Shown here: piece after piece, positions 4,178-50,317 of the stretch
Position numbering within the stretch: position 1 is the stretch's first letter
How the letters are laid out: every line of letters begins with the position of its first letter
Source: Octopus sinensis
Lineage: Eukaryota
DNA length: 64,000 bases
Direction of reading: 5' to 3'
NCBI RefSeq assembly: GCF_006345805.1
Contig: NC_043023.1
Location: 17,050,001-17,114,000, forward strand
Notes under the pieces: generated by a model
The model's input: only the letters and a program-made list of their open reading frames with translations
What the model was told of the DNA's origin: nothing
The model's database searches: none
Position numbers and translations under genes: made by a program

Positions 4178-6955
4178 GGATCTTTTCGTTTTGAACGGCA
4201 GTTTTTTAAAATAATTTCCACGTAACTAAACACTTTTAAACTTCGTATACTGGTAGAATGTGTTTATAAAACATCTTTTTCTCTTGGCTTTATTGAGAAT
4301 ATTCTATAGTTTGTAAGATATTTGGGATCTTTTCGGTTTGACCGGCAGTTTTTTAAAATAATTTCCACGTAACTAAACACTTTTAAACTTCGTATACTGG
4401 TAGAATGTGTTTAAAAACATCTTTTTCTCTTGGCTTTATTGAGAATATTCTATAGTTTGTAAGATATTTGGGATCTTTTCGGTTTGACCGGCAGTTTTTT
4501 AAAATAATTTCCACGTAACTAAACACTTTTAAACTTCGTATACTGGTAGAATGTGTTTATAAAACATCTTTTTCTCTTGGCTTTATTGAGAATATTCTAT
4601 AGTTTGTAAGATATTTGGGATCTTTTCGGTTTGACCGGCAGTTTTTTAAAATAATTTCCACGTAACTAAACACTTTTAAACTTCGTATACTGGTAGAATG
4701 TGTTTATAAAACATCTTTTTCTCTTGGCTTTATTGAGAATATTCTATAGTTTGTAAGATATTTGGGATCTTTTCGGTTTGACCGGCAGTTTTTTAAAATA
4801 ATTTCCACGTAACTAAACACTTTTAAACTTCGTATACTGGTAGAATGTGTTTATAAAACATCTTTTTCTCTTGGCTTTATTGAGAATATTCTATAGTTTG
4901 TAAGATATTTGGGTCTTTTCGGTTTGAACGGCAGTTTTTTAAAATAATTTCCACGTAACTAAACACTTTTAAACTTCGTATACTGGTAGAATGTGTTTAT
5001 GAAACATCTTTTTCTCTTGGCTTTATTGAGAATATTCTATAGTTTGTAAGATATTTGGGATCTTTTCGGTTTGACCGGCAGTTTTTTAAAATAATTTCCA
5101 CGTAACTAAACACTTTTAAACTTCGTATACTAGTAGAATGTGTTTATAAAACATCTTTTTCTCTTGGCTTTATTGAGAATATTCTATAGTTTGTAAGATA
5201 TTTGGGTCTTTTCGGTTTGAACGGCAGTTTTTTAAAATAATTTCCACGTAACTAAACACTTTTAAACTTCGTATACTGGTAGAATGTGTTTATAAAACAT
5301 CTTTTTCTCTTGGCTTTATTGAGAATATTCTATAGTTTGTAAGATATTTGTTGTTGTTTTTTCTTCTTCAATTTCTGCAATTTCAACCAATCACTGACGT
5401 CTGTTGAGGTGAAAACATTCTGTACCGTATGAATATGTCCCTCGTTTAAGAAACAGGGATCTTTTCGGTTTGAACGGCACTAAATACTTTTAAACTTCGT
5501 ATACTGGTAGAATGTGTTTATAAAACATCTTTTTCTCTTGGCTTTATTGAGAATATTCTATAGTTTGTAAGAATTTGGGATCTTTTCGGTTTGACCGGCA
5601 GTTTTTTAAAATAATTTCCACGTAACTAAACACTTTTAAACTTCGTATACTGGTAGAATGTGTTTATAAAACATCTTTTTCTCTTGGCTTTATTGAGAAT
5701 ATTCTATAGTTTGTAAGATATTTGGGATCTTTTCGGTTTGACCGGCAGTTTTTTAAAATAATTTCCACGTAACTAAACACTTTTAACTTCGTATACTGGT
5801 AGAATGTGTTTATAAAACATCTTTTTCTCTTGGCTTTATTGAGAATATTCTATAGTTTGTAAGATATTTGGGATCTTTTCGGTTTGACCGGCAGTTTTTT
5901 AAAATAATTTCCACGTAACTAAACACTTTTAAACTTCGTATACTGGTAGAATGTGTTTATAAAACATCTTTTTCTCTTGGCTTTATTGAGATATTCTATA
6001 GTTTGTAAGATATTTGGGTCTTTTCGGTTTGAACGGCAGTTTTTTAAAATAATTTCCACGTAACTAAACACTTTTAAACTTCGTATACTGGTAGAATGTG
6101 TTTATAAAACATCTTTTTCTCTTGGCTTTATTGAGAATATTCTATAGTTTGTAAGATATTTGGGATCTTTTCGGTTTGACCGGCAGTTTTTTAAAATAAT
6201 TTCCACGTAACTAAACACTTTTAAACTTCGTATACTAGTAGAATGTGTTTATAAAACATCTTTTTCTCTTGGCTTTATTGAGAATATTCTATAGTTTGTA
6301 AGATATTTGGGTCTTTTCGGTTTGACCGGCAGTTTTTTAAAATAATTTCCACGTAACTAAACACTTTTAAACTTCGTATACTGGTAGAATGTGTTTATAA
6401 AACATCTTTTTCTCTGGCTTTATTGAGAATATTCTATAGTTTGTAAGATATTTGTTGTTGTTTTTTCTTCTTCAATTTCTGCAATTTCAACCAATCACTG
6501 ACGTCTGTTGAGGTGAAAACATTCTGTACCGTATGAATATGTCCCTCGTTTAAGAAACAGGGATCTTTTCGGTTTGAACGGCACTAAATACTTTTAAACT
6601 TCGTATACTGGTAGAATGTGTTTATAAAACATCTTTTTCTCTTGGCTTTATTGAGAAAATTCTATAGTTTGTAACATATTTGTTGTTGTTTTTTTCTTCA
6701 ACTTCTGCAATTTCAAGCGATCAATGACGTCTATTGAGGTGAAAACATTCTGTGCCGTATGAATATGTCCCTCGTTTAAGAAACAGATTGAGTTTATTTA
6801 CATTTCTGAAGAAAAAAAGATATCCTTCCCTCCACCCCTAACCCTAACCCTAAAACATATTGAAATGCAATAGATCGATACTAGGGTCATAATTATGGGT
6901 GACAATTTCATATGACACCGCTAGAAAAAACTGCTGTGCAAAACCGAAAAGATCC
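4178..6955 (+). mobile_element. Merlin-like MITE expanded into a tandem array of ~147-bp units (plus ~250-bp units)
   Basis: Flanked by 8-bp TSD gaaatctc (4170-4177)/gaaatccc (6956-6963). About 16 copies of the left TIR plus adjacent sequence, with a single right TIR at the end. Confidence 0.85.
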
Positions 6956-12039: not shown

Positions 12040-12233
12040 TTAAGCTTGGATAAACTTTACAAAAGAGTTGACAGTTTTCACCTGTTGATTTAGGTATGAA
12101 GTAAGATCACAAATGAAAGAAGCATAGCATTAAATTATTCTCTGAAAATAGTGATCCAACTTCATACAAACATATTCATAGAAATGAAAAAATCATTATC
12201 ATTGTGATACGTATAATTAATTATTCTCTCATA

Positions 12234-13040
12234 ATGGATAATATAATTGAACCAAAAAACCCTGATACCAGAGATAAGCCACATTCCTGCGATATCTGTG
12301 GTAAGTCATTCTCTCATAGTACTAACTTAACTAGACACAAGCGTACACATACAGGTGAAAAGCCATACCATTGCGATATCTGTGGTAAATCATTCCCTGA
12401 AGCTGGTCAGTTGAAAACACACAAACGTATGCATACAGGTGAAAAGCCGTATCATTGTAATATCTGTGGTAAATCATTTGTTTCTGTTAGTCATGTCACT
12501 AATCACAAACGTATTCATACAGGTGAGAAGCCATATCATTGTGATACCTGTGGTAAATCATTCACACAAAACAGTCATTTGACTAAACCCAAACTTATTC
12601 ATACAGGTGAGAAGCCACATCACTGTGGTATTTGCGGAAAATCATTCTCTCGTTATGATAAATTGAATCCTCACAAACGCACTCATACAGGTGAGAAGCC
12701 TCATCATTGTGATATCTGTGATAAATCATTCTCTGAAAGTAGCCTCTTGACTCGTCACATACGAATTCATACAGGTGAGAAACCATATCAATGTGATATC
12801 TGTGGTACATCATTCTCTCAAAATGGTTATTTCGCTAAGCACAAACGCATTCATACAGGAGAGAAGCCATATCATTGTGATATCTGTGGTAAATCATTTT
12901 CTCAAAATAGCACTTTAACTAGTCACAAATGCATTCATACAGGTGAGAAGCCATATACCTGTGATATCTGTGGTAAATCATTCTCTCAACTGAGTGCCTT
13001 AAATAAACACAAACAGACACATACAGGTGAAAAGCCATAA
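12234..13040 (+). CDS. C2H2 (Kruppel-type) zinc-finger protein, 9 tandem fingers, 268 aa
   Basis: ATG at 12234; nine CxxC-x12-HxxxH units with TGEKP linkers; finger 4 has the first His replaced by Pro (LTKPKLIH); stop directly after the last TGEKP. No effector domain is visible. Confidence 0.88.
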   Translation: MDNIIEPKNPDTRDKPHSCDICGKSFSHSTNLTRHKRTHTGEKPYHCDICGKSFPEAGQLKTHKRMHTGEKPYHCNICGKSFVSVSHVTNHKRIHTGEKPYHCDTCGKSFTQNSHLTKPKLIHTGEKPHHCGICGKSFSRYDKLNPHKRTHTGEKPHHCDICDKSFSESSLLTRHIRIHTGEKPYQCDICGTSFSQNGYFAKHKRIHTGEKPYHCDICGKSFSQNSTLTSHKCIHTGEKPYTCDICGKSFSQLSALNKHKQTHTGEKP

Positions 13041-13769: not shown

Positions 13770-16700
13770 GGATCTTTTCTGTTTGAACGGCAGTTTTTTC
13801 TAGGGGTGTCATATGAAATTGTCACCCATAATTATGACCCTAGTATCGATCTATTGCATTTCAATCTGTCTCAGGGTTAGTGGTGGGGGGAAGGGTATCT
13901 TTTTTTTTTCTTCAGAAATGTAAATAAAACTCAATCTGTTTCTTAAACGAGGAACATATTCATACGGCACAGAATGTTTTCACCTCAATAGACGTCACTG
14001 ATTGGTTGAAATTGCAGAAATTGAAGAAAAAAAACAACAAATATCTTACAAACTATAGAATTTTCTCAATAAAGCCAAGAGAAAAAGATGTTTTATAAAC
14101 ACATTCTACCAGTATACGAAGTTTAAAAGTGTTTAGTTACGTGGAAATTATTTTAAAAAACTGCCGTTCAAACCGAGAAGACCCAAATATCTTACAAACT
14201 ATAGGATTTTCTCAATAAAGCCAAGAGAAAAAGATGTTTTATAAACACATTCTACCAGTATACGAAGTTTAAAAGTGTTTAGTTACGTGGAAATTATTTT
14301 AAAAAACTGCCGTTCAAACCGAAAAGACCCAAATATCTTATAAACTATAGGATTTTCTCAATAAAGCCAAGAGAAAAAGATGTTTTATAAACACATTCTA
14401 CCAGTATACGAAGTTTAAAAGTGTTTAGTTACGTGGAAATTATTTTAAAAAGCTGCCGTTCAAACCGAAAAGACCCAAATATCTTACAAACTATAGAATT
14501 TTCTCAATAAAGCCAAGAGAAAAAGATGTCTTATAAACATATTCTACCAGTAATCGAAGTTTAAAAGTGTTTAGTTACGTGGAAATTATTTTAAAAAACT
14601 GCCGTTCAAACCGAAAAGACTCAAATATCTTACAAACTATAGAATATTCTCAATAAAACCAAGAGAAAAAGATGTTTTATAAACATATTCTACCAGTAAT
14701 CGAAGTTTAAAAGTGTTTAGTTACGTGGAAATTATTTTAAAAAGCTGCCGTTCAAACCGAAAAGACCCAAATATCTTACAAACTATAGAATTTTCTCAAT
14801 AAAGCCAAGAGAAAAAGATGTTTTATAAACATATTCTACCAGTGATCGAAGTTTAAAAGTGTTTAGTTACGTGGAAATTATTTTAAAAAACTGCCGTTCA
14901 AACCGAAAAGACCCAAATATCTTACAAACTATAGAATTTTCTCAATAAAGCCAAGAGAAAAAGATGTTTTATAAACATATTCTACCAGTAATCGAAGTTT
15001 AAAAGTGTTTAGTTACGTGGAAATTATTTTAAAAAGCTGCCGTTCAAACCGAAAAGACCCAAATATCTTACAAACTATAGAATTTTCTCATAAAGCCAAG
15101 AGAAAAAGATGTTTTATAAACATATTCTACCAGTGATCGAAGTTTAAAAGTGTTTAGTTACGTGGAAATTATTTTAAAAAACTGCCGTTCAAACCGAAAA
15201 GACCAAATATCTTACAAACTATAGAATTTTCACAATAAAGCCAAGAGAAAAAGATGTTTTATAAACATATTCTACCAGTATCGAAGTTTAAAAGTGTTTA
15301 GTTACGTGGAAATTATTTTAAAAAACTGCCGTTCAAACCGAGAAGACCCAAATATCTTACAAACTATAGAATTTTCTCAATAAAGCCAAGAGAAAAAGAT
15401 GTTTTATAAACATATTCTACCAGTAATCGAAGTTTAAAAGTGTTTAGTTACGTGGAAATTATTTTAAAAAACTGCCGTTCAAACCGAAAAGATCCCAAAT
15501 ATCTTACAACTATAGAATTTTCTCAATAAAGCCAAGAGAAAAAGATGTTTTATAAACATATTCTACCAGTATCGAAGTTTAAAAGTGTTTAGTTACGTGG
15601 AAATTATTTTAAAAAACTGCCGTTCAAACCGAAAAGATCCCTGTTTCATAAACGAGGGACATATTCATACGGCACACAATGAATTTTTACCTCAATAGAC
15701 GTCATTGATTGGTTGAAATTGCAGAAATTGAAGAAAAAAAACAACAAATATCTTACAAACTATAGAATTTTCTCAATAAAGCCAAGAGAAAAAGATGTTT
15801 TATAAACAAATTCTACCAGTATACGAAGTTTAAATGTGTTAGTTACGTGGAAATTATTTTAAAAAACTGCCGTTCAAACCGAAAAGATCCCTGTTCATAA
15901 ACGAGGGACATATTCATACGGCCACAATGCATTTTTACCTCAATAGACGTCATTGATTGGTTGAAATTGCAGAAATTGAAGAAAAAAAACAACAAATATC
16001 TTACAAACTATAGAATTTTCTCAATAAAGCCAAGAGAAAAAGATGTTTTATAAACAAATTCTACCAGTATACGAAGTTTAAATGTGTTAGTTACGTGGAA
16101 ATTATTTTAAAAAACTGCCGTTCAAACCGAAAAGATCCCTGTTTCATAAACGAGGGACATATTCATACGGCACACAATGCATTTTTACCTCAATAGACGT
16201 CATTGATTGGTTGAAATTGCAGAAATTGAAGAAAAAAAAACAACAAATATCTTACAAACTATAGAATTTTCTCAATAAAGCCAAGAGAAAAAGATGTTTT
16301 ATAAACAAATTCTACCAGTATACGAAGTTTAAATGTGTTAGTTACGTGGAAATTATTTTAAAAAACTGCCGTTCAAACCGAAAAGATCCCTGTTTCATAA
16401 ACGAGGGACATATTCATACGGCACACAATGCATTTTTACCTCAATAGACGTCATTGATTGGTTGAAATTGCAGAAATTGAAGAAAAAAAACAACAAATAT
16501 CTTACAAACTATAGAATTTTCTCAATAAAGCCAAGAGAAAAAGATGTTTTATAAACAAATTCTACCAGTATACGAAGTTTAAATGTGTTTAGTTACGTGG
16601 AAATATTTTAAAAAACTGCCGTTCAAACCGAAAAGATCCCTGTTTCATAAACAAGGGACATATTCATACGGCACACAATGCATTTTTACCTCAATAGACG

Positions 16701-17389
16701 TCATTGATTGTTGAAATTGCAGAAATTGAAGAAAAAAAACAACAAATATCTTACAAACTATAGAATTTTCTCAATAAAGCCAAGAGAAAAAGATGTTTTA
16801 TAAACAAATTCTACCAGTATACGAAGTTTAAATGTGTTTAGTTACGTGGAAATTATTTTAAAAAACTGCCGTTCAAACCGAAAAGATCCCTGTTCATAAA
16901 CGAGGGACATATTCATACGGCACACAATGCATTTTTACCTCAATAGACGTCATTGATTGGTTGAAATTGCAGAAATTGAAGAAAAAAAACAACAAATATC
17001 TTACAAACTATAGAATTTTCTCAATAAAGCCAAGAGAAAAAGATGTTTTATAAACAAATTCTACCAGTATACGAAGTTTAAATGTGTTTAGTTACGTGGA
17101 AATATTTTAAAAAACTGCCGTTCAAACCGAAAAGATCCCTGTTTCATAAACAAGGGACATATTCATACGGCACACAATGCATTTTTACCTCAATAGACGT
17201 CATTGATTGGTTGAAATTGCAGAAATTGAGAAAAAAAAAAAACAAATATCTTACAAACTATAGAATTTTCTCAATAAAGCCAAGAGAAAAAGATGTTTTA
17301 TAAACACATTCTACCAGTATACGAAGTTTAAATGTGTTTAGTTACGTGGAAATTATTTTAAAAAACTACCGTTCAAACCGAAAAGATCC
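13770..17389 (-). mobile_element. Merlin-like MITE expanded into ~11 x 146-bp plus ~7 x 250-bp tandem units
   Basis: Perfect 8-bp TSD ctattttg (13762-13769 and 17390-17397); orientation opposite to 4178-6955; same unit junctions. Confidence 0.88.
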
Positions 17390-17657
17390 CTATTTTGTCT
17401 GCTAAAAGACAATTTTTTTCCCTTCAACTTCAATATCGTCAATGTGAATCTGAAATTTGTCATTATCTGTAAAAATATTGACTCTGAGATAACTTCATCA
17501 CTGAAAATGCCTGCAGTTGGATTTTGAGGAATTTGTCAAAAAAGAATAATGAATGAAATGTTAAACTGTAACCATTCTGTGTTTGTTTTGTTACTCTGTA
17601 TCTAGACTCTGTCCCTTCTATCCCTTAAATCTCTCAACTGGTACAGTTACACCCCTT

Positions 17658-20772: not shown

Positions 20773-23700
20773 AGAACACATGACAACGACCCATTGATCC
20801 GCCTACTACCAAACACATGACCACGACTCATAGATCCTCCTACTACCAGAACACATGACCACGACTCATAGATCCGCCCCTACCCACCCAGAACCACATG
20901 ACAAGACCCATTGATCCTCCCTACTACCAGAACACATGACCACGACTCATAATCGCCCCACTCCAGAACACATGACAACGACCCATAGATCCGCCCACCA
21001 CTACCAGAACACATTACAACGACACATTGATCCGCCTACTACCAAGCACACATGACCACGACTCATAGATCCGCCTACTACCAGAACACATGACCACGAC
21101 TCATAGATCCGCCCACTCCCAGAACCATGACAACGACCCATTGATCCGCCCACTACCAGAACACATGACCACGACTCATAGATCCGCCCACTCCCAGAAC
21201 ACATGACAACGACCAATTGATCAGCCCTATACCAGAACACATGACCACGACTCATAGTCCGCCCACTCCCAGAACACATGACAACGACCCATTGATCCGC
21301 CTACTACCAACACATGACCACGACTCATAGATCCGCCCACTCCCAGAACACATGACAACGACCCTTGATCCGCCTACTACCAAACACATGACCACGACTC
21401 ATAGATCCCCTACTAACCAGAACACATGACCACGACTCATAGATCCGCCCACTCCCAGAACACATGACACGACCCATTGATCCGCCTACTACCAGAACAC
21501 ATGACCACGACTCATAGATCCGCCCACTCCCAGAACACATGACAACGACCCATAGATCCGCCTACTACCAGAACACATGAACACGACCCATTGATCCGCC
21601 TACTCCACACACATCATTAACGACTCATAGATCCGCCTACTACCAAGAACACATGACCACGACTCATAGATCCGCCTACTACAGAACACATGACCACGAC
21701 TCATAGATCCGCCTACTACCAGAACACATGACCACGACTCATAGATCCGCCCACTCCCGAACACATGACCACGACTCATAGATCCGCCCCCTCCCAGAAC
21801 ACATGACAACGACCCATAGATCCGCCCACTCCCAGAAAACATGACAACGACCCATTGATCCGCCTACTACTACCAGAACACATGACCACGACTCATAGAT
21901 CCGCCCACTCCCAGAACACATGACAACGACCCATTGATCCGCCTACTACCAGAACACATGACCACGACTCATAGATCCGCCCACTCCCAGAACACATGAC
22001 AACGACCCATAGATCCGCCTACTACCAGAACACATGACAACGACCCATTGATCCGCCTACTACCAGCACACATGACCACGACTCATAGATCCGCCTACTA
22101 CCAGAACACATGACCACGACTCATAGATCCGCCTACTACCAGAACACATGACCACGACTCATAGATCCGCCCACTCACAGAACACATGACAACGACCCAT
22201 AGATCCGCCAACTACCAGAACACATGACAACGACCCATTGATCCGCCTACTACCAGAACACATGACCACGACTCATAGATCCGCCCACTCCCAGAACACG
22301 TGACAACGACCCAAAGATCCGCCTACTACCAGAACACATGACCACGACTCATAGATCCGCCCACTCCCAGAACACATGACAACGACTCATAGATCCGCCT
22401 ACTACCAGAACACATGACAACGACCAATAGATCCGCCTACTAACAGAACACATGACCACGACTCATAGATCCGCCCACTCCCAGAACACATGACAACGAC
22501 CCATAGATCCGCCTACTACCAGCACACATGACCACGACTCATAGATCCGCCCACTCCCAGAACACATGACAACGACCCATTGATCCGCCTACTACCAGAA
22601 CACATGACCACGACTCATAGATCCGCCCACTCCCAGAACACATGACAACGACCCATTGATCCGCCTACTACCAGAACACATGACCACGACTCATAGATCC
22701 GCCCACTCCCAGAACACATGACAACGACCCATAGATCCGCCTACTACCAGAACACATGACAACGACCCATAGATCCGCCTACTACCAGAACACATGACCA
22801 CGACTCATAGATCCGCCCACTCCCAGAACACATGACAACGACCCATAGATCCGCCTACTACCAGAAAACATGACCACGACTCATAGATCCGCCCCACTCC
22901 CAGAACACATGACAACGACCCATTGATCCGCCTACTACCAGAACACATGACCACGATTCAGATCCGCCTACTACCAGAACACATGACCACGACTCATAGA
23001 TCCGCCCACTCCCAGAACACATGACAACGACCCTTGATCCGCCTACTGCCAGAACACATGACCACGACACATAGATCCGCCTACTACCAGCACACATGAC
23101 CACGACTCATAGATCCGCCCACTCCCAGAACACATGACCACGACTCATAGATCCGCCCACTCCCAGAACACATGACAACGACCATTGATCCGCCTACTAC
23201 CAGCAACACATGACCACGACTCATAGATCCGCCCACTCCCAGAACACATGACAACGACCCATAGATCCGCCTACTACCAGCACACATGACCACGACTCAT
23301 AGATCCGCCCACTCCCAGAACACATGACAACGACCCATTGATCCGCCTACTACCAGAACACATGACCACGACTCATAGATCCGCCTACTACCAGAACACA
23401 TGACAACGACTCATAGATCCGCCCACTCCCAGAACACATGACAACGACCCATAGATCCGCCTACTACCAGAACACATGACCACGACTCATAGATCCGCCT
23501 ACTACCAGAGCACATGACCACGACTCATAGATCCGCCCACTCCCAGAACACATGACCACGACTCATAGATCCGCCCACTCCCAGAACACATGACAACAAC
23601 CCATTGATCCGCCTACTACCAGCACACATGACCACGACTCATAGATCCGCCCACTCCCAGAACACATGACAACGACCCATTGATCCGCCTACTACCAGCA

Positions 23701-26700
23701 CACATGACCACGACTCATAGATCCGCCCCCTCCCAGAACACATGACAACGACCCATTGATCCGCCTACTACCAGAACACATGTCCACGACTCATAGATCC
23801 GTCTACTACCAGAACACATGACCACGACTCATAGATCCGCCCACTCCCAGAACACATGACAACGACCCATAGATCCGCCTACTACCAGAACACATGACCA
23901 CGACTCATAGATCCGCCCACTCCCAGAACACATGACAACGACCATAGATCCGCCTACTACCCGAACACATGACCACGACTCATAGATCCGCCCACTCCCA
24001 GAACACATGACAACGACCCATAGATCCGCCTACTACCAGAACACATGACAACGACCCATTGATCCGCCTACTACCAGAACACATGACAACGACCCATTGA
24101 TCCGCCTACTACCAGCACACATGACCACGACTCATAGATCCGCCCCCTCCCAGAACACATGACAACGACCCATTGATCCGCCTACTACCAGAACACATGT
24201 CCACGACTCATAGATCCGTCTACTACCAGAACACATGACCACGACTCATAGATCCGCCCACTCCCAGAACACATGACAACGACCCATAGATCCGACTACT
24301 ACCAGAACACATGACCACGACTCATAGATCCGCCCACTCCCAGAACACATGACAACGACCCATAGATCCGCCTACTACCAGAACACATGACCACGACTCA
24401 TAGATCCGCCCACTCCCAGAACACATGACAACGACCCATTGATCCGCCCCTACTACCAGCACACATGACCACGACTCTTAGATCCGCCTACTAACAGAAC
24501 ACATGACCACGACTCATAGATCCGCCCACTCCAAGAACACATGACAACGACCCATTGATCCGCTACTACCAGAACACATGACCACGACTCATAGATCCGC
24601 CTACTACCAGAACACATGACCACGACTCATAGATCCGCCCACTCCCAGAAACACATGACCACGACTCATAGATCCGCCCACTCCCAGAACACATGACAAC
24701 GACCCATTGATCCGCCTACTACCAGACACACATGACACGACTCATAGATCCGCCCACTCCCAGAACACATGACACGACCCATTGATCCGCCTACTACCAG
24801 AACACATGACCACGACTCATAGATCCGCCCACTCCCAGAACACATGACCACGACTCATAGATCCGCCCACTCCCAGAACACATGACAACGACCCATCTAT
24901 CCGCCCACTCCCAGAACACATGACAACGACTCATAGATCCGCCTACTACCAGAACACATGACCACGACTCATAGATACGCCTACTACCAGAACACATGAC
25001 CACGACTCATAGATCCGCCCACTCCCAGAACACATGACCACGACTCATAGATCCGCCCACTCCCAGAACACATGACAACGACCCATAGATCCGCCTACTA
25101 CCAGAACACATGACCACGACTCATAGATCCGCCTACTACCAGAACACATGACAACGACCCATAGATCCGCCTACTACCAGAACACATGACCACGACTCAT
25201 AGATCCGCCCACTCCCAGAACACATGACAACGACCCATAGATCCGCCTACTACCCGAACACCATGACCACGACTCATAGATCCGCCACACCCCAGAACAC
25301 ATGACAACGACCCATAGATCCGCCTACTACCAGAACACATGACAACGACCCATTGATCCGCCTACTACCAGAACACATGACAAACGACCCATTGATCCGC
25401 CTACTACCAGAACACATGACCACGACTCATAGATCCGCCCACTCCCAGAACACATGACACGACTCATAGATACGCCCACTCCCAGAAACACATGACAACG
25501 ACCATTGATCCGCCTACTACCAGCACACATGACCACGACTCATAGATCCGCCCACTCCCAGAACACATGACAACGACCATTGATCCGCCTACTACCAGAA
25601 CACATGACCACGACTCATAGATCCGCCCACTCCCAGAACACATGACACGACTCATAGATCCGCCCACTCCCAGAACACATGACAACGACCCATTGATCCG
25701 CCCTACTACCAGAAACACATAACCACGACTCATAGATCCGCCACTCCCAGAACACATGACCACGACTCATAGATCCGCCCACTCCAGAACACATGACAAC
25801 GACCCATAGATCCGCCTACTACCAGAACACATGACAACGACCCATAGATCCGCCTACTACCAGAACACATGACCACGACTCATAGATCCGCCCACTCCCA
25901 GAACACATGACAACGACCCATAGATCGCCTACTACCAGCACACATGACCACGACTCATAGATCCGCCCACTCCCAGAACACATGACAACGACCCATTGAT
26001 CCGCCTACTACCAGAACACATGACCACGATTCAGATCCGCCTACTAAAGAACACATGACCACGACTCATAGATCCGCCCACTCCCAGAACACATGACAAC
26101 GACCCATTGATCCGCCTACTGCCAGAACACATGACCACGACACATAGATCCGCCTACTACCAGCACACATGACCACGACTCATAGATCCGCCCACTCCCA
26201 GAACACATGACCACGACTCATAGATCCGCCCACTCCCAGAACACATGACAACGACCCATTGATCCGCCTACTACCAGCACACATGACCACGACTCATAGA
26301 TCCGCCCACTCCCAGAACACATGACAACGACCCATAGATCCGCCTACTCCCAGCACACATGACCACGACTCATAGATCCGCCCACTCCCAGAACACATGA
26401 CAACGACCCATTGATCCGCCTACTACCAGAACACATGACCACGACTCATAGATCCGCCTACTACCAGAACACATGACAACGACTCATAGATCCGCCACTC
26501 CCAGAACACATGACAACGACCCATAGATCCGCCTACTACCAGAACACATGACCACGACTCATAGATCCGCCTACTACCAGAGCACATGACCACGACTCAT
26601 AGATCCGCCCACCCCAGAACACATGACCACGACTCATAGATCCGCCCACTCCCAGAACACATGACAACAACCCATTGATCCGCCTACTACCAGCACACAT

Positions 26701-29700
26701 GACCACGACTCATAGATCCGCCACTCCCAGAACACATGACAACGACCCATTGATCCGCCTACTACCAGCACACATGACCACGACTCATAGATCCGCCCCC
26801 TCCAGAAACACATGACAACGACCCATTGATCCGCCTACTACCAGAACACATGTCCACGACTCATAGATCCGTCTACTACCAGAACACATGACCACGACTC
26901 ATAGATCCGCCCACTCCCAGAACACATGACAACGACCCATAGATCCGCCTACTACCAGAACACATGACCACGACTCATAGATCCGCCCACTCCCAGAACA
27001 CATGACAACGACCCATAGATCCGCCTACTACCAGAACACATGACCACGACTCATAGATCCGCCCACTCCCAGAACACATGACAACGACCCATTGATCCGC
27101 CTACTACCAGCACACATGACCACGACTCTTAGATCCGCCTACTAACAGAACACATGACCACGACTCATAGATCCGCCCACTCCAAGAACACATGACAACG
27201 ACCCATTGATCCGCCTACTACCAGACACATGACCACGACTCATAGATCCGCCTACTACCAGAACACATGACCACGACTCATAGATCCGCCCCACTCCCAG
27301 AACACATGACCACGACTCATAGATCCGCCCACTCCCAGAACAGATGACAACGACCATTGATCCGCCTACTACCAGCACACATGACCACGACTCATAGATC
27401 CGCCCACTCCCAGAACACATGACAACGACCCATTGATCCGCCTACTACCAAACACATGACCACGACTCATAGATCCGCCCCACTCCCAGAACACATGACC
27501 ACGACTCATAGATCCGCCCACTCTCCCAGAACACATGAGAACGACCCATTGATCCGCCTACTACCAGAACACATGACCACGACTCATAGATCCGCCTACT
27601 ACCAGAACACATGACAACGACTCATAGATCCGCCCACTCCCATAACACATGACAACGACCCATAGATCCGCCTACTACCAGAACACATGACCACGACTCA
27701 TAGATCCGCCTACTACCAAACACATGACAACGACCCATAGATCCGCCTACTACCAGAACACATGACCACGACTCATAGATCCGCCCACTCCCAGAACACA
27801 TGACAACGACCCATAGATCCGCCTACTACCAGCACACATGACCACGACTCATAGATCCGCCCACTCCCAGAACACATGACAACGACCCATTGATCCGCCT
27901 ACTACCAGAACACATGACCACGATTCAGATCCGCCTACTACCAGAACACATGACCACGACTCATAGATCCGCCCACTCCCAGAACACATGACAACGACCC
28001 ATTGATCCGCCTACTGCCAGAACACATGACCACGACACATAGATCCGCCTACTACCAGCACACATGACCACGACTCATAGATCCGCCCACTCCCAGAACA
28101 CATGACCACGACTCATAGATCCGCCCACTCCCAGAACACATGACAACGACCCATTGATCCGCCTACTACCAGCACACATGACCACGACTCATAGATCCGC
28201 CCACTCCCAGAACACATGACAACGACCCATAGATCCGCCTACTACCAGCACACATGACCACGACTCATAGATCCCACTCCCAGAACACATGACAACGACC
28301 CATTGATCCGCCTACTACCAGAACACATGACCACGACTCATAGATCCGCCTACTACCAGAACACATGACAACGACTCATAGATCCGCCCACTCCCAGAAC
28401 ACATGACAACGACCCATAGATCCGCCTACTACCAGAACACATGACCACGACTCATAGATCCGCCTACTACCAGAGCACATGACCACGACTCATAGATCCG
28501 CCCACTCCCAGAAACATGACCACGACTCATAGATCCGCCCACTCCCAGAACACATGACAACAACCCATTGATCCGCCTACTACCAGCACACATGACCACG
28601 ACTCATAGATCCGCCCACTCCCAGAACACATGACAACGACCCATTGATCCGCCTACTACCAGCACACATGACCACGACTCATAGATCCGCCCCCTCCCAG
28701 AACACATGACAACGACCCATTGATCCGCCTACTACCAGAACACATGTCCACGACTCATAGATCCGTCTACTACCAGAACACATGACCACGACTCACGATC
28801 ATAGTCGCCCACTCCCAGAACACATGACAACGACCCATAGATCCGCCTACTACCAGAACACATGACCACGACTCATAGATCCGCCCACTCCCAGAACACA
28901 TGACAACGACCCATAGATCCGCCTACTACCAGAACACATGACCACGACTCATAGATCCGCCCACTCCCAGAACACATGACAACGACCCATTGATCCGCCT
29001 ACTACCAGCACACATGACCACGACTCTTAGATCCGCCTACTAACAGAACACATGACCACGACTCATAGATCCGCCCACTCCAAGAACACATGACAACGAC
29101 CCATTGATCCGCCTACTACCAGAAACAATGACCACGACTCATAGATCCGCCTACTACCAGAACATGACCACGACTCATAGATCCGCCCACTCCCAGAACA
29201 CATGACCACGACTCATAGATCCCCCACTCCAGAACACATGACAACGACCCATTGATCCGCCTACTACCAGCACACATGACCACGACTCATAGATCCGCCC
29301 ACTCCCAGAACACATGACAACGACCCATTGATCCGCCTACTACCAGAACACATGACCACGACTCATAGATCCGCCCACTCCCAGAACACATGACCACGAC
29401 TCATAGATCCGCCCACTCCCAGAACACATGACAACGACCCATCTATCCGCCCACTCCCAGAACACATGACAACGACTCATAGATCCGCCTACTACCAGAA
29501 CACATGACCACGACTCATAGATACGCCTACTACCAGAACACATGACCACGACTCATAGATCCGCCCACTCCCAGAACACATGACCACGACTCATAGATCC
29601 GCCCACTCCCAGAACACATGACAACGACCCATAGATCCGCCTACTACCAGAACACATGACCACGACTCATAGATCCGCCTACTACCAGAACACATGACAA

Positions 29701-32700
29701 TGACCCATAGATCCGCCTACTACCGAAACACATGACCACGACTCATAGATCCGCCCACTCCCAGAACACATGACAACGACCCATAGATCCGCCTACTACC
29801 CGAACACATGACCACGACTCATAGATCCGCCCACTCCAGAACACATGACAACGACCCATAGATCCGCCTACTACCAGAACACATGACAACGACCCATTGA
29901 TCCGCCTACTACCAGAACACATGACAACGACCCATTGATCCGCCTACTACCAGCACACATGACCACGACTCATAGATCCGCCCCCTCCCAGAACACATGA
30001 CAACGACCCATTGATCCGCCTACTACCAGAACACATGTCCACGACTCATAGATCCGTCTACTACCAGAACACATGACCACGACTCATAGATCCGCCCACT
30101 CCCAGAACACATGAACGACCCATAGATCCGACTACTACCAGAACACATGACCACGACTCATAGATCCGCCCACTCCCAGAACACATGACACGACCCATAG
30201 ATCCGCCTACTACCAGAACACATGACCACGACTCATAGATCCGCCCACTCCCAGAACACATGACAACGACCCATTGATCCGCCTACTACCAGCACACATG
30301 ACCACGACTCTTAGATCCGCCTACTAACAGAACACATGACCACGACTCATAGATCCGCCCACTCCAAGAACACATGACAACGACCCATTGATCCGCCTAC
30401 TACCAGAACACATGACCACGACTCATAGATCCGCCTACTACCAGAACACATGACCACGACTCATAGATCCGCCCACTCCCAGAACACATGACCACGACTC
30501 ATAGATCCGCCCACTCCCAGAACACATGACAACGACCCATTGATCCGCCTACTACCAGCACACATGACCACGACTCATAGATCCGCCCACTCCCAGAACA
30601 CATGACAACGACCCATTGATCCGCCTACTACCAGAACACATGACCACGACTCATAGATCCGCCCACTCCCAGAACACATGACCACGACTCATAGATCCGC
30701 CCACTCCCAGAACACATGACAACGACCCATCTATCCGCCCACTCCCAGAACACATGACAACGACTCATAGATCCGCCTACTACCAGAACACATGACCACG
30801 ACTCATAGATACGCCTACTACCAGAACACATGACCACGACTCATAGATCCGCCCACTCCCAGAACACATGACCACGACTCATAGATCCGCCCACTCCCAG
30901 AACACATGACAACGACCCATAGATCCGCCTACTACCAGAACACATGACCACGACTCATAGATCCGCCTACTACCAGAACACATGACAATGACCCATAGAT
31001 CCGCCTACTACCAGAACACATGACCACGACTCATAGATCCGCCCACTCCCAGAACACATGACAACGACCCATAGATCCGCCTACTACCCGAACACATGAC
31101 CACGACTCATAGATCCGCCCACTCCCAGAACACATGACAACGACCCATAGATCCGCCTACTACCAGAACACATGACAACGACCCATTGATCCGCCTACTA
31201 CCAGAACACATGACAACGACCCATTGATCCGCTACTACCAGAACACATGACCACGACTCATAGATCCGCCCACTCCCAGAACACATGACCACGACTCATA
31301 GATACGCCCACTCCCAGAACACATGACAACGACCCATTGATCCGCCTACTACCAGCACACATGACCACGACTCATAGATCCGCCCACTCCCAGAAAACAT
31401 GACAACGACCCATTGATCGCCCCTACTACCAGAACACATGACCACGACTCATAGATCCGCCCACTCCCAGAACACATGACCACGACTCATAGATCCGCCC
31501 ACTCCCAGAACACATGACAACGACCCATTGATCCGCCTACTACCAGAACACATAACCACGACTCATAGATCCGCCCACTCCCAGAACACATGACCACGAC
31601 TCATAGATCCGCCCACTCCAGAACACATGACAACGACCCATTGATCCGCCTACTACCAGCACACATGACCACGACGCATAGATCCGCCCACTCCCAGAAC
31701 ACATGACCACGACTCATAGATCCGCCCACTCCCAGAACACATGACAACGACCCATTGATCCGCCTACTACCAGAACACATGACAACGACCCATTGATCCG
31801 CCTACTACCAGCACAAACTACCACGACTCATAGATCCGCCCACTCCCAGAACACATGACCACGACTCATAGATCCGCCCACTCCCAGAACACATGACAAC
31901 GACCCATTGATCCGCCTACTACCAGAACACATGACCACGACTCATAGATCCGCCCACTCCCAGAACACATGACCACGACTCATAGATCCGCCCACTCCCA
32001 GAACACATGACAGCGACCCATTGATCCGCCTACTACCAGCACACATGACCACGACTCATAGATCCGCCCACTCCCAGAACACATGACCACGACTCATAGA
32101 TCCGCCCACTCCCAGAACACATGACAACGACCCATTGATCCGCCCACTCCCAGAACACATGAAAACGACTCATAGATCCGCCTACTACCAGAACACATGA
32201 CCACGACTCATAGATCCGCCTACTACCAGAACACATGACCACGACTCATAGATCAGCCCACTCCCAGAACACATGACCACGACTCATAGATCCGCCCACT
32301 CCCAGAACACATGACAACGACCCATAGATCCGCCTACTACCAGAACACATGACCACGACTCATAGATCCGCCCACTCCCAGAACACATGACAACGACCCA
32401 TAGATCCGCCCACTCCCAGAACACATGACAACGACCCATTGATCCGCCTACTACCAGAACACATGACAACGACCCATTGATCCGCCTACTACCAGAACAC
32501 ATGACAACGACCCATAGATCCGCCTACTACCAGAACACATGACCACGACCCATAGATCCGCCTACTACCAGAACACATGACAACGACCCATTGATCCGCC
32601 TACAACCAGAACACATGACAACGACCCATTGATCCGCCTACTACCAGAACACATGACAACGACCCATAGATCCGCCTACTACCAGAACACTTGACCACGC

Positions 32701-33353
32701 CCCATAGATCCGCCTACTACCAGAACACATGACAACGACCCATTGATCCGCCTACTACCAGAACACATGACAACGACCCATAGATCCGCCTACTACCAGA
32801 ACACATGACAACGACCCATTGATCCGCCTACTACCAGAACACATGACCACGACTCATAGATCCGCCCACTCCCAGAACACATGACCACGACTCATAGATC
32901 CGCCCACTCCCAGAACACATGACAACGACCCATTGATCCGCCCACTCCCAGAACACATGACAACGACTCATAGATCCGCCTACTACCAGAACACATGACC
33001 ACGACTCATAGATCCGCCCACTCCCAGAACACATGACCACGACTCATAGATCCGCCCAGTCCCAGAACACATGACAACGACCCATAGATCCGCCTACTAC
33101 CAGAACACATGACCACGACTCATAGATCCGCCCACTCCCAGAACACATGACAACGACCCATAGATCCGCCTACTACCAGAACACATGACCACGACCCATA
33201 GATCCGCCTACTACCAGAACACATGACCACGACCCATAGATCCGCCTACTACCAGAACACATGACAACGAGCCATTGATCCGCCTACTACCAGAACACAT
33301 GACAACGACCCATTGATCCGCCTACTACCAGAACACATGACAATGACCCATAG
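20773..33353. repeat. 38-bp satellite array (~330 monomers, at least 12.6 kb) with 76-bp dimer and kb-scale higher-order structure
   Basis: Monomer agaacacatgac(c/a)acgac(t/c)cat(a/t)gatccgcc(cactccc/tactacc). Confidence 0.97.
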
Positions 33354-41645: not shown

Positions 41646-42117
41646 TATATATATTACTCTTTTCTCTTTACTCTTTTACTTGTTTCAGTCATTTGACTGC
41701 GGGAATGATGGAGCACCGCTTTTAGTCGAGCAAATCGACCCCGGGACTTATTCTTTGTAAGCCCAGTACTTATTCTATCAGTCTCTTTTGTCGACCGGGA
41801 CGTAAACACACCAGCATCGGTTGTCAAGCAATGCTAGGGGTCAAACACAGACACACAATCACACACACACATACATACATATACATATATATATAATTAT
41901 ATATATATTATATATATATATAATAATAATAATAATAAATATTAGGGAATAAATCCAAATTTACAGGGAAAAATCAGATTAAGGACTGAATCCAATTTTA
42001 TAGTAAAATATTATATAATATTAATTAGAGACAAAACCACTATTATGCAAATCAAACAAAGAAAGACTTAATCCAATACATAAAAAAATTTATATAAATT
42101 AAATAAAATTAAATTCG

Positions 42118-42163
42118 CCACTACAATTGTTTCGTGTCTCTTCTAAGGACATTCATCAGGTGG
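42118..42163 (-). ncRNA. Minimal type I hammerhead ribozyme motif
   Basis: Reverse complement reads ccac CTGATGA atgtccttagaagagacac GAAA caattg TA gtgg. Confidence 0.8.
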
Positions 42164-42212
42164 TATTCAGATCTTCTATTCAATTTCAAGTTATGAATAG
42201 AAGATCTGAATA

Positions 42213-42258
42213 CCACCTGATGAATGTCCTCAGAAGAGACACGAAACAATTGTAGTGG
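42213..42258 (+). ncRNA. Minimal type I hammerhead ribozyme motif
   Basis: Stem I ccac/gtgg; CTGATGA 42217-42223; stem II tgtc/gaca; GAAA 42243-42246; palindromic stem III acaattgt; GUA triplet 42252-42254. Confidence 0.82.
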
Positions 42259-42361
42259 CGAATTTAATTTGTTTAATTTATATAATTTTTTTATGTATGG
42301 ATAAGTCTTTCTTTGTTTGATTTGCATAATAGTGGTTTTGTCTCTAATTAATATAATATTA

Positions 42362-45125: not shown

Positions 45126-45514
45126 CTAGCAGTATCGCCCGGCGTTGCTCGGGTTTGTAAGGGAAATAATTATATAAAGCATTTTTAGAGATGTAAAGTA
45201 TAATAGCCATCTCAATATGGCTAACCACAAAGGGGGAGGGGGTGTTACTGTAGCTTTTTACGTTCTGAGATTAATAATAAATTTTAGAGAGTTACTTCCC
45301 TATATATGTCAAAAATGGATTAAAAATGGGAAAAATTGATGTAAATTTTTTTTTAAATCGTAGACTCATCGTAGACGCGCGCTAATACCCAGACGGTCTC
45401 GATATGATCACGACTATAAGATACCCGGTTGGGTTAAACTGCACCGCAAAATGGGGGAGTTAGGAATCTAAATCGTAGGAGACAGACACACAACCTCACT
45501 TTTATATATAAAGA
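45126..45514 (-). mobile_element. Non-autonomous Helitron
   Basis: Reverse complement of 11581-11982, with TC start, hairpin and CTAG end. Confidence 0.85.
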
Positions 45515-45576
45515 TTTCCTCTATTTACATAATATTGAGGTCTCTTTCTTCTTTTGTTATCTTACTGTTTTTACCA

Positions 45577-45607
<31 letters not shown>

Positions 45608-45617
45608 AATATATATA

Positions 45618-45935
45618 GTTACAGAGATGTACTTGCATAGCAAGTGACTTGATCTGAGATCGTGTGCTGGAACGAAACAGTTGCAGCGTTGAAGGTGTTT
45701 ATAAGCCATTTAAGAAACACACAAAACCGTTAGATTCACTTCAACATTAAATTTAATTTGTCAAAATATTTTCATCGCTTTGAGACCGCGACCTGTTAGC
45801 ACGATATTTTGTCAGTGAACAGGTCGCGGTCTCAAAGCGACGAAAATATTTTGGCAAATTAAATTTAAATGTTGAAGTGAATGTAACGGTTTTTGTGTGG
45901 TTCTTAAATGGCTTACAAACACCTTCCACGCTGCA
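45618..45935. mobile_element. Fold-back element (arms 45682-45797 and 45818-45935) in (TA)n
   Basis: ~115-bp inverted repeat, tgcagcgttgaaggtgttt... versus ...aaacaccttccacgctgca. Confidence 0.75.
45808..45858 (+). ncRNA. Candidate variant type I hammerhead (G3-C8 core)
   Basis: Stem I tttgtca/tggcaaa; core GTGAACA; one extra g; stem II gtcgc/gcgac; GAAA 45842-45845; palindromic aatatt; UUU triplet. Confidence 0.55.
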
Positions 45936-46294
45936 TATATAATACAACACATATATATATGTATGTATGTATGTATGTGTGTATATGTGTATGCAGTATG
46001 TGTGTGTGTGCGTGTCTGTGCTTGTGATTGTCCTCCACCACTGCTTGACAACGAATGTTGGTTTGTTTACATCCCTGTCACCTAGTGGTTTGACAAAGGA
46101 AACAGATAGAATAAGTACAATGCTTACAAAAATAAAAGTGGAGTTGATTCATTAAAACTACAATTCTTCAAGGCATTGCCCCAGCATGGCCACAGACCAA
46201 TGGCTGAAAAAGCAGAAGAATAAAAGAATACATTCTCTGCTTTGGTCTTATGTTCAAGGCATGAGAAAGCTTGAGTTTACATGAGAAGGCCTAA

Positions 46295-46625
46295 CAGACC
46301 TGGTAGAAACAGCAGCCAAATCTCCCTCAAATCACACCTTACTGTCTTATGTATGTATATATGAGCCAATGAGGGGGACCTCTACATGGTAGCTAGACCT
46401 GGTAGAAATAGCAGCCAAATTTCCCCCAAATCACACCTTACTGTCTTATCTATGTATATATGTATGTATGAGCCTATGAGGGAGACCCCTACATGGCAGC
46501 TAGACCTGGTAGAAATAGCAGCCAAAATTTTGTATGTATGAGCCTATGAGGGAGACCCCTACATGGCAGCTAGACATGGTAGAAATAGCAGCCAAATCTC
46601 CCTCAAATCACACCTACTGTCTTAT
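46295..46625 (+). repeat. 4x imperfect tandem of agacctggtagaaatagcagccaaatctccctcaaatcacacc
   Basis: Copies at ~46297, 46395, 46502 and 46572. Confidence 0.8.
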
Positions 46626-46869
46626 CTTTCTGCTACTTGGATATAGCTGTTATATTCGTCGTAAAAAACTTTCCTGTCACACACTCACGCACAACACCAC
46701 ACACACAACGCACCCTCACACACACACACACACGCGCACACCCACACACACCCACTCACACACACGCACGTTAGCTTACAATTTTATTTATATATTTGCG
46801 TGTCTTTGTGTGGAAAGAGGATGTGGGAGGCAGAGGCAGAGTGAAAGAATCACTCACTACAGTAAGTCA

Positions 46870-47139
46870 TTACTTTCATTTTATTCGTTGCCCACTGTGT
46901 GTGCGTTTGCGTGTGGTGTAAACCAGACTAAGAAAAGCATTTGACACACACACCAGAATGTGAGTTTTCTGTAAATTTTGCTTAATTGGAGTTTAAATTT
47001 TAAAAACTGGACCTGGCATGACACGATGCATGTGTACTCTCAAAAATGCTAGGTAAATTGTAATTGAAGAAATCCTATATTGTAGATTTGTATAACTCCC
47101 AAAGGGAGGCAGATAAAATCTGCCTTTTATAATAAGAGA
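46870..47139 (-). mobile_element. Helitron-like 5' end; inverted partner at 48521-48788
   Basis: a|tctcttattataaaagg start with subterminal palindrome aggcagattttatctgcct. Confidence 0.6.
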
Positions 47140-48434: not shown

Positions 48435-48475
<41 letters not shown>

Positions 48476-48520
48476 ATATACATACATACGTATATATACA
48501 TACATGCATACATATATATA
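47140..48520. repeat. Degenerate (TACA)n/(TA)n field
   Basis: Directly visible. Confidence 0.95.
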
Positions 48521-48788
48521 TCTCTTATTATAAAAGGCAGATTTTATCTGCCTCCCTTGGGAGTTATACAAATCAAACAATATAGGATTTCTTCAATTAC
48601 AATTTACCTAGCATTTTAAGAGTACAACGCATCGCGTCATGCCAGGTCCAGTTTTAAAATTAAACTCCAATTAAGCAAAATTTACAGAAAACTCACATTC
48701 TGGTGTGTGTGTCAAATGCTTTTCTTAGTCTGGTTTACACCACACGCAAACGCACACACACAGTGGGCAACGAATAAAATGAAAGTAA
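48521..48788 (+). mobile_element. Helitron-like 5' end (inverted copy of 46870-47139)
   Basis: ~270-bp reverse-complement identity. Confidence 0.6.
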
Positions 48789-49651: not shown

Positions 49652-49672
49652 ACCACTACTGCGCTATGTATA

Positions 49673-50317
49673 TCTATATATATAAAACTGTAGTTGTGTG
49701 AGTGTCTGTCCCCTTTGATTTTGATTCCTAACTACTCCCACATTTTGCGGTACAGTTTAACCAAATTCGGGTAGCTAATAGTCGTGATTCATATCGAGCC
49801 CGTCTGAATATTAGCGCGCGTCTACGATGAGTCTACGATTTAAAAATAATTTAACATAATTTTTTATTCCATTTTAATGCATAATTTTCGTGTGTCGATG
49901 GCGGCGGAGTTGGCGTCCACGCTCACACCTGCACCTGTGGGGAAGGGAGTGGTAAGGAAAGTGTAGGAAATCAACGTCGTAATGCGTTGTCAAGGAGACC
50001 AGTGTTCTTTTAGAACAACGACTTCATGGCTTGAAGACACCAAAACAGAAATGGCTAAGAAAGGGTCTACATGAGTCTACGATTTAAAAAAAAATTTGCC
50101 ATCGTTTTTTTCCATTTTAATACATTTTTTCGCTATTATATAAGGGAAGTAACTCTCTAAAAATGTCTACGATGAGTCAACGATTTAAAAAAAAATTTAC
50201 CATCATTTTATTTCCATTTTTAATGCATTCTTTGCTATTTTTTGGCTATAACTCTCTAAAAATGCTTATATAATTATTTCCCTTACAAACCCGAGCAACG
50301 CCGGGCGATACTGCTAG
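49673..50317 (+). mobile_element. Non-autonomous Helitron, longer variant with an extra internal segment
   Basis: a|TC start, hairpin cccgagcaacgccggg, CTAG|t end; reiterated gtctacgatttaaaaa blocks. Confidence 0.85.

Follow-up and report, generated by a model that had tools for sequence, protein, structure and literature searches.

A natural G3-C8 hammerhead motif in the terminal repeat of a Penelope-like retrotransposon of Octopus sinensis, carried by a Helitron

The positions 3 and 8 of a hammerhead ribozyme are usually occupied by a C and a G, and the locus described here raises the question of whether a natural hammerhead can carry the reverse. The window, a stretch of 64,000 nucleotides of the Octopus sinensis genome (NC_043023.1, positions 17,050,001 to 17,114,000), had been described in an earlier note as holding a type I hammerhead topology with a 7-bp stem I, a 5-bp stem II, GAAA and a palindrome, built around a GUGAACA core with G3 and C8 in place of CUGANGA. 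Direct reading of the letters bore out both the topology and the core, the latter at 45815-45821, and the cut that the note expected after 45851 agrees with the placement of U17. The parts of the motif are as follows.

45808..45858, + strand: minimal type I hammerhead motif with a G3-C8 core, by direct reading and parsing
45808-45814 with 45852-45858, + strand: stem I, 7 pairs including one U.G wobble (45812/45854)
45815..45821, + strand: core positions 3-9, with G3 at 45815 and C8 at 45820
45822, + strand: extra G between positions 9 and 10.1
45823-45827 with 45837-45841, + strand: stem II, 5 pairs, with G10.1-C11.1 present
45842-45845, + strand: GAAA
45845..45850, + strand: six-base palindrome from 15.1 to 16.1, likely the intermolecular stem III of a dimer
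45851, + strand: U17, with the predicted cut directly after it

Stems I and II enclose the core in a three-way junction, and both form when the 51-mer is folded by itself (-13.2 kcal/mol). U4, G5 and A6, A9, G12, A13 and A14, the A15.1-U16.1 pair and H17 (here U) are all present, while the core departs from the canonical C3 U G A N G8 A in having G3 and C8, which are themselves a Watson-Crick pair. Two further features, an extra nucleotide between 9 and 10.1 and a palindromic helix III, are traits of the Penelope class. The former had been taken as a deviation, as had the UUU triplet that supplies U17; neither is one, as the extra nucleotide is conserved among the minimal hammerheads of Penelope elements (PMC4209133, excerpt) and U17 is common in the class, both in the alignment excerpted from that paper and in the relatives described below. 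A descriptor that permits any Watson-Crick 3-8 pair matched the window at this site only. When 963 dinucleotide shuffles were scanned on both strands as a control for chance, sites with a stem I of at least 7 and a stem II of at least 5 numbered 0, with 54 at the loosest setting. The site at 45808..45858 is thus confirmed to form a minimal type I hammerhead architecture with a G3-C8 core. Consensus searches do miss it, as had been foreseen: Rfam gave no hammerhead match at the gathering score or at E up to 10, and only hairpin look-alikes up to the latter value.

The motif sits in the middle of a fold-back (45682-45935; 254 bases, 89% self-complementary), where the note had placed it, and this fold-back lies within a larger mobile element.

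45126..47139, - strand: non-autonomous Helitron-type element around the fold-back, with 5' TC at 47139 and a 3' hairpin plus CTAG at 45126
45618..45797, - strand: left arm, an inverted and more truncated copy of the same Penelope terminal repeat (pLTR)
45798..45935, + strand: right arm, a 5'-truncated Penelope pLTR stub that stops at the family's short 3' end

On the 3' side of the motif, the right arm is identical to an autonomous copy (L101) in 76 of 86 columns. The left arm starts at core position 6, leaving it without positions 3-5 and the 5' strand of stem I, and is therefore not a second ribozyme; it also bears a tail of about 60 bases (45618-45681) that reaches the family's long 3' end. 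An inverted truncated copy with a tail would be the normal product of Penelope insertion, and such a product probably lies behind the fold-back.

The Helitron-type element is flanked by host A and T. When the genome (2.72 Gb) was searched for DNA matches, the 30 best shared with the window a unit of about 2 kb at 99-100% identity. Of these 30 loci, 25 have the CTAG end, adjoining host A on the + strand in every case, and 23 have the other end; one locus (L006) contains a head-to-tail junction, and the exact junction of the fold-back occurs in 530 copies across the genome. Termini of this kind (5' TC, 3' hairpin plus CTAG), an AT target, head-to-tail junctions and captured host fragments are all described for non-autonomous Helitrons (PMC4778049, excerpt), from which, as excerpted there, this carrier differs in its cargo, a Penelope fold-back. 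The Helitron would have captured the fold-back once and then copied it about 500 times as DNA. The window copy is a passenger in a Helitron and not part of an intact Penelope element. Further pieces of the same Helitron family lie in the opposite orientation at 48446-48788 and 49672-49882.

This history bears on how conservation may be used. Alignment of all genomic copies had been proposed as the check on G3 and C8 and, across the family, both are indeed fixed, but the closest copies are misleading, being 99% identical Helitron passengers. Conservation among them was rejected as evidence for a ribozyme because these matches are recent DNA copies. Judged from sequence comparisons, it is the parent Penelope family and its sister families that support G3-C8.

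A loose G3-C8 pattern matched the genome 7,308 times, against 917 for a reversed control. Copies of the family are 5'-truncated, frequently paired with an inverted copy and frequently placed inside TA repeats, and they terminate at either of two points that lie about 60 bases from each other. The truncation, the inverted copies and the ends match the insertion signature of Penelope elements (PMC8557442, excerpt; PMC11167929). Remnants of reverse transcriptase (RT) or GIY-YIG endonuclease were found upstream of the motif in four of 20 long copies, and a protein search recovered copies with long open frames of 700-1042 aa. The single open frame of 1042 aa encodes an RT, with motifs identified by eye, followed by a C-terminal GIY-YIG domain and with a CX3CX2C linker. 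GIY-YIG matched in Pfam on fragments at E about 4e-4, which is below the curated cut-off, and the whole 1042-aa protein gave no match in Pfam and nothing in PDB. Its homologues, at 31-58% identity, include proteins named for an RT domain and others with PF00078 or PF01541. Downstream of the frame, the G3-C8 motif is present in seven of the eight long-frame loci (0.9-1.0 kb behind it in six), the eighth, L107, having an inverted copy alone. An inverted copy also lies upstream in five of the eight, and a direct-orientation upstream motif, as in a partial tandem, in none of them. The motif is the terminal repeat hammerhead of an endonuclease-bearing Penelope-like retrotransposon.

Among known elements, the parent most resembles the endonuclease-bearing Neptune and Nematis groups as excerpted from PMC8557442, which likewise carry GIY-YIG C-terminal to the RT with a CX2-5CxxC linker and show inverted truncated copies, a one-sided tail and TA-repeat targets. 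The tail of about 60 bases, against 30-40 there, and the microsatellite-rich 3' region of about 1 kb are differences from those elements. The C-terminal position of the endonuclease sets the parent apart from Naiad elements, in which it is N-terminal. A link to Naiad through a frame beside the tail in L059 and L060 was considered and dropped, the downstream flanks being unrelated and the real frame lying upstream. That comparison of downstream flanks covered the 100 of 112 matches listed, in whose flanks a protein start inside the pLTR was not found.

Two features of the pLTR itself were also observed. About 25-45 bases upstream of stem I, L101 has a branch-point-like, pyrimidine-rich stretch ending in AG, near which most short copies begin; from its sequence, this is possibly the 3' end of a pLTR intron. 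In addition, the short pLTR unit has complementary sequences at its start and at its short 3' end, both in the window (45798-45806 with 45922-45935) and in L101, where folding was read from minimum-energy folds. This pairing, loosely kept in the old subfamily described below, is predicted to close a structure of roughly 150 bases around the hammerhead.

When a motif is found within a 254-base fold-back inside a Helitron-type element, there is reason to ask whether it is merely a chance by-product of an inverted repeat, such as a MITE or an internal Helitron hairpin, and no hammerhead at all. The Rfam hairpin look-alikes would fit such an origin. However, the stems of the motif are independent of the fold-back, the motif occurs without any inverted arm behind RT-endonuclease frames, and relatives carry homologous canonical hammerheads in the same place. 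Together with the shuffle control, this linkage and these homologues refute a by-product origin, which we regard as scarcely credible.

How far G3-C8 is a property of the family was assessed by counting. With the same scaffold pattern, G3-C8 was matched 5,068 times, Y3-R8 7,783 times and R3 with a base other than C at position 8 568 times, the controls giving 0-3. The Y3-R8 matches listed belong mostly to three families, labelled B (C3-G8, with A9 or C9), C (U3-A8) and D (C3-G8) in this analysis. The protein of family B is 54% identical in amino acids to that of the G3-C8 family, and its C3-G8 motif lies in the same place behind the frame in three of the five loci listed. Compared with the G3-C8 family, family B shows covariation in both of these stems: A-U replaces G-C in stem II, and G-C replaces A-U at 15.2-16.2 in stem III. 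Many of its copies have C9 and others A9 (L110:5500-5620, L111, L114). The C9 of family B represents a second natural core variant, seen in L172 together with U3-A8, and its tolerance may point, as far as the sequences go, to a loose catalytic constraint in this clade.

The G3-C8 family also includes an old subfamily, in which position 7 is C, loop II is shorter, the palindrome has four bases and distal stem I contains G-C pairs. A pattern for this subfamily with positions 3 and 8 left free gave 81 matches, which by a hand count of the classes comprise 46 G-C, five C-G, five U.G, two U-A, one A-U, six G.U and 16 mismatched; 13 of these can be assigned to other families from their 3-8 class, and a further 22 are decayed forms. 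For nine old copies, the sequence 3' of the motif matches the window at 51-66% identity, a range close to background given that the unrelated families B, C and D reach 42-55% in the same comparison. In the loci tested for the old subfamily and for families C and D, no adjacent open reading frame turned up. An alignment of 20 rows has 99.2% of its cells paired and 19 cells changed on both sides, a level reached in 0 of 500 shuffles, and is illustrative, since the patterns used to select its rows already set parts of stem II and the 3-8 classes. The family is also present in contigs from four other organisms, where no alternative base reaches 10% at 45815 or 45820, and among them the G of the window at 45854 is a minority wobble.

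Copies in which 3 and 8 are mismatched are about as frequent as neutral decay would produce (568 against 5,068; 22 of 68 old-family copies not G-C). As inserted copies decay neutrally at these positions, selection is visible between master lineages only, and every family consensus seen keeps 3-8 paired. G3-C8 is a family state, present in young copies and in the old subfamily. The natural non-canonical architecture that the earlier note had proposed from one site accordingly extends across the family, as both the pattern counts and the parent Penelope copies attest.

The window contains other hammerhead-like fold-backs and several unrelated repeats. At 42097-42279, each arm of a fold-back has a canonical C3-G8 minimal hammerhead with a palindromic stem III, in which position 10.1 is an A opposite C, and these may be decayed. 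In another fold-back, at 1106-1280, the arms contain a hammerhead-like core of the U3-A8 type, after which come a stem and GAAA. A 38-base satellite of about 332 copies with a strong strand skew occupies 20773-33353, tandem arrays of 146-147 bases lie in opposite orientations at 4178-6786 and 14038-17395, and a C2H2 zinc-finger array forms a single open frame on the + strand at 12201-13040.

The direction of change was sought in more distant relatives. In metagenome sequences at 34-50% identity, a motif of this kind follows the frame at a distance of about 90-140 bases, its core pair being C3-G8 or U3-A8. A strict scan found it in ten of 80 metagenome loci (nine C-G, one U-A), and five more (three U-A, two C-G) were recognised by eye among 21 loci listed. 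Outside this Penelope lineage, G3-C8 was absent from these 80 loci, many of which end before the expected place of the motif. Six distant RT relatives on metagenome contigs (L226, L227 and L240-L243) have canonical hammerheads with four-base palindromic loops. An RT tree of 18 rows, rooted at its midpoint, places the five G3-C8 rows on one branch (99/100), sister to family B and inside the C3-G8 and U3-A8 lineages; L241 was dropped as too short, and L227 is long and unsure. The tree shows a single derived origin at most, because of the midpoint root and because the G3-C8 rows are near-copies. We infer that G3-C8 arose once and that, whatever its copy number, it counts as one evolutionary event. 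The state would have been derived from a C3-G8 or U3-A8 ancestor and then kept through successive generations of master elements. The pair would be retained if placement of the 2'-OH at position 8 depends on the pairing of 3 and 8, and not on the identity of the bases.

A single origin would equally suffice if G3 and C8 were two chance mutations in one master element that hitch-hiked with it, the pair as such being unselected, and inserted copies do decay at 3 and 8 as they do elsewhere. Against this, both bases have lasted from the old subfamily to young copies with open frames of 700-1042 aa, whereas changes occurred in loop II, position 7, distal stem I and the downstream sequence. It is also unlikely that two independent changes would hit one complementary combination without selection, and hitch-hiking is accordingly considered highly improbable.

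If selection has kept the pair, the question is what is selected. The note's premise that positions 3 and 8 form a Watson-Crick pair in the active hammerhead agrees with the excerpt of PMC3884650, according to which the pair forms only in the active conformation. Its further premise, that the double change retains activity, was too generous: there is some rescue, but the engineered swap restores activity only in part. This holds for hammerhead activity after the double swap in PMC8495972 and for C3G/G8C in a Penelope hammerhead whose cleavage requires its protein (PMC11167929), and a C3G/G8C double mutant had been engineered by Martick and Scott (2006, as cited in an excerpt of PMC11167929). 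Minimal Penelope hammerheads are described as inactive when monomeric and slow when dimeric (PMC4209133, excerpt). By analogy, two copies in a tandem transcript could pair their palindromes to build stem III, and the dimer hammerhead would then cut the precursor RNA at the pLTR. Cleavage after U17 would be slow, in tandem or protein-bound transcripts. The duplex of the six-base palindrome is weak by itself (-0.2 kcal/mol), and free co-folding of two 51-mers gives a strand-swapped duplex, which is no test of the dimer hammerhead.

The motif could instead derive from a hammerhead yet be non-catalytic, its fold being retained because the Penelope protein binds or recognises it, or because it belongs to the structured 150-base RNA end that serves reverse transcription. 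For the Anolis element, catalytic mutants of the hammerhead left insertion in vitro unaffected, and no RNA ends mapped to the cut site (PMC11167929). Naiad elements thrive without canonical hammerheads, according to the excerpt of PMC8557442; the sister family B fixes C9; and the ends of the pLTR are predicted to pair as a larger closed structure around the motif. A mere binding site sits less well with the retention of U4, G5, A6, G12, A13, A14, G10.1-C11.1 and H17, or with a 3-8 pair that belongs to the active conformation (PMC3884650, excerpt) and persists in every family consensus seen. On this balance, a non-catalytic role appears unlikely, though it merits serious consideration. The preferred reading, to which we assign a probability of roughly 0.7, is a Penelope pLTR hammerhead with G3-C8 that likely cuts slowly after U17, and whose Helitron-borne copy is predicted to be silenced by its antisense arm. 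Opinion is evenly poised on whether it represents an active natural class of reversed-core hammerheads, kept in old and young Penelope generations beside C3-G8 and U3-A8 sisters.

Silencing of the window copy is suggested by folding. The full fold-back is predicted at -189 kcal/mol, and six tested pairs of stems I and II have a probability of 0.0 within it, compared with 0.72-0.99 when the left arm is removed. A plus-strand transcript would reach the antisense left arm before the hammerhead. The upstream antisense arm is thus predicted to block folding of the hammerhead in a transcribed window copy, which is most likely inert.

The closest known systems are the minimal hammerheads of metazoan Penelope elements (Cervera & de la Peña, 2014; PMC4209133, excerpt), with which the motif shares its type I form, the extra nucleotide between 9 and 10.1, G10.1-C11.1, a tiny palindromic helix III, a pLTR location, many truncated single copies and close pairs on opposite strands. 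The core pairs in that excerpt are C3-G8 and U3-A8 only, in contrast to G3-C8 here, and the 7-bp stem I and 5-bp stem II differ from the typical 4-5 and 7-8 given there for Schistosoma. The engineered C3G/G8C of the Anolis Poseidon hammerhead has the same reversed pair and partial activity in vitro (PMC11167929), whereas here G3-C8 occurs in nature and is the fixed state of a family with thousands of copies. A parallel case of 3-8 covariation is provided by the natural U3-A8 variants (Perreault et al., 2011; PMC3088659, excerpt), and this genome has a U3-A8 family built on the same scaffold. As excerpted, that change amounts to two transitions that keep a purine at position 8, while G3-C8 takes two transversions and puts a pyrimidine there. 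Full-text literature searches for a natural G3-C8 returned the engineered variant only, and a prior record outside the reachable literature is possible; the main text of the octopus repeat annotation paper mentions neither hammerhead nor ribozyme. A natural, family-fixed G3-C8 hammerhead would, on sequence grounds, be a new state in the known Penelope hammerhead class.

The C3-G8 pair had been inferred from a crystal structure and engineered swaps, with U3-A8 as the natural covariation in print. The G3-C8 family and its sisters in other states now offer natural controls for the effect of the pair on cleavage rate, as well as a means of testing whether catalysis by Penelope hammerheads is under selection. 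Such motifs escape descriptor and Rfam searches, and reports of elements without hammerheads may need to be re-checked. If such an active reversed-core class exists, three of the four Watson-Crick 3-8 states would work in vivo on one scaffold, further ribozymes of this kind would be hidden from CUGANGA searches, and the state of the pair may tune the cleavage rate or make cleavage depend on the protein of the element.
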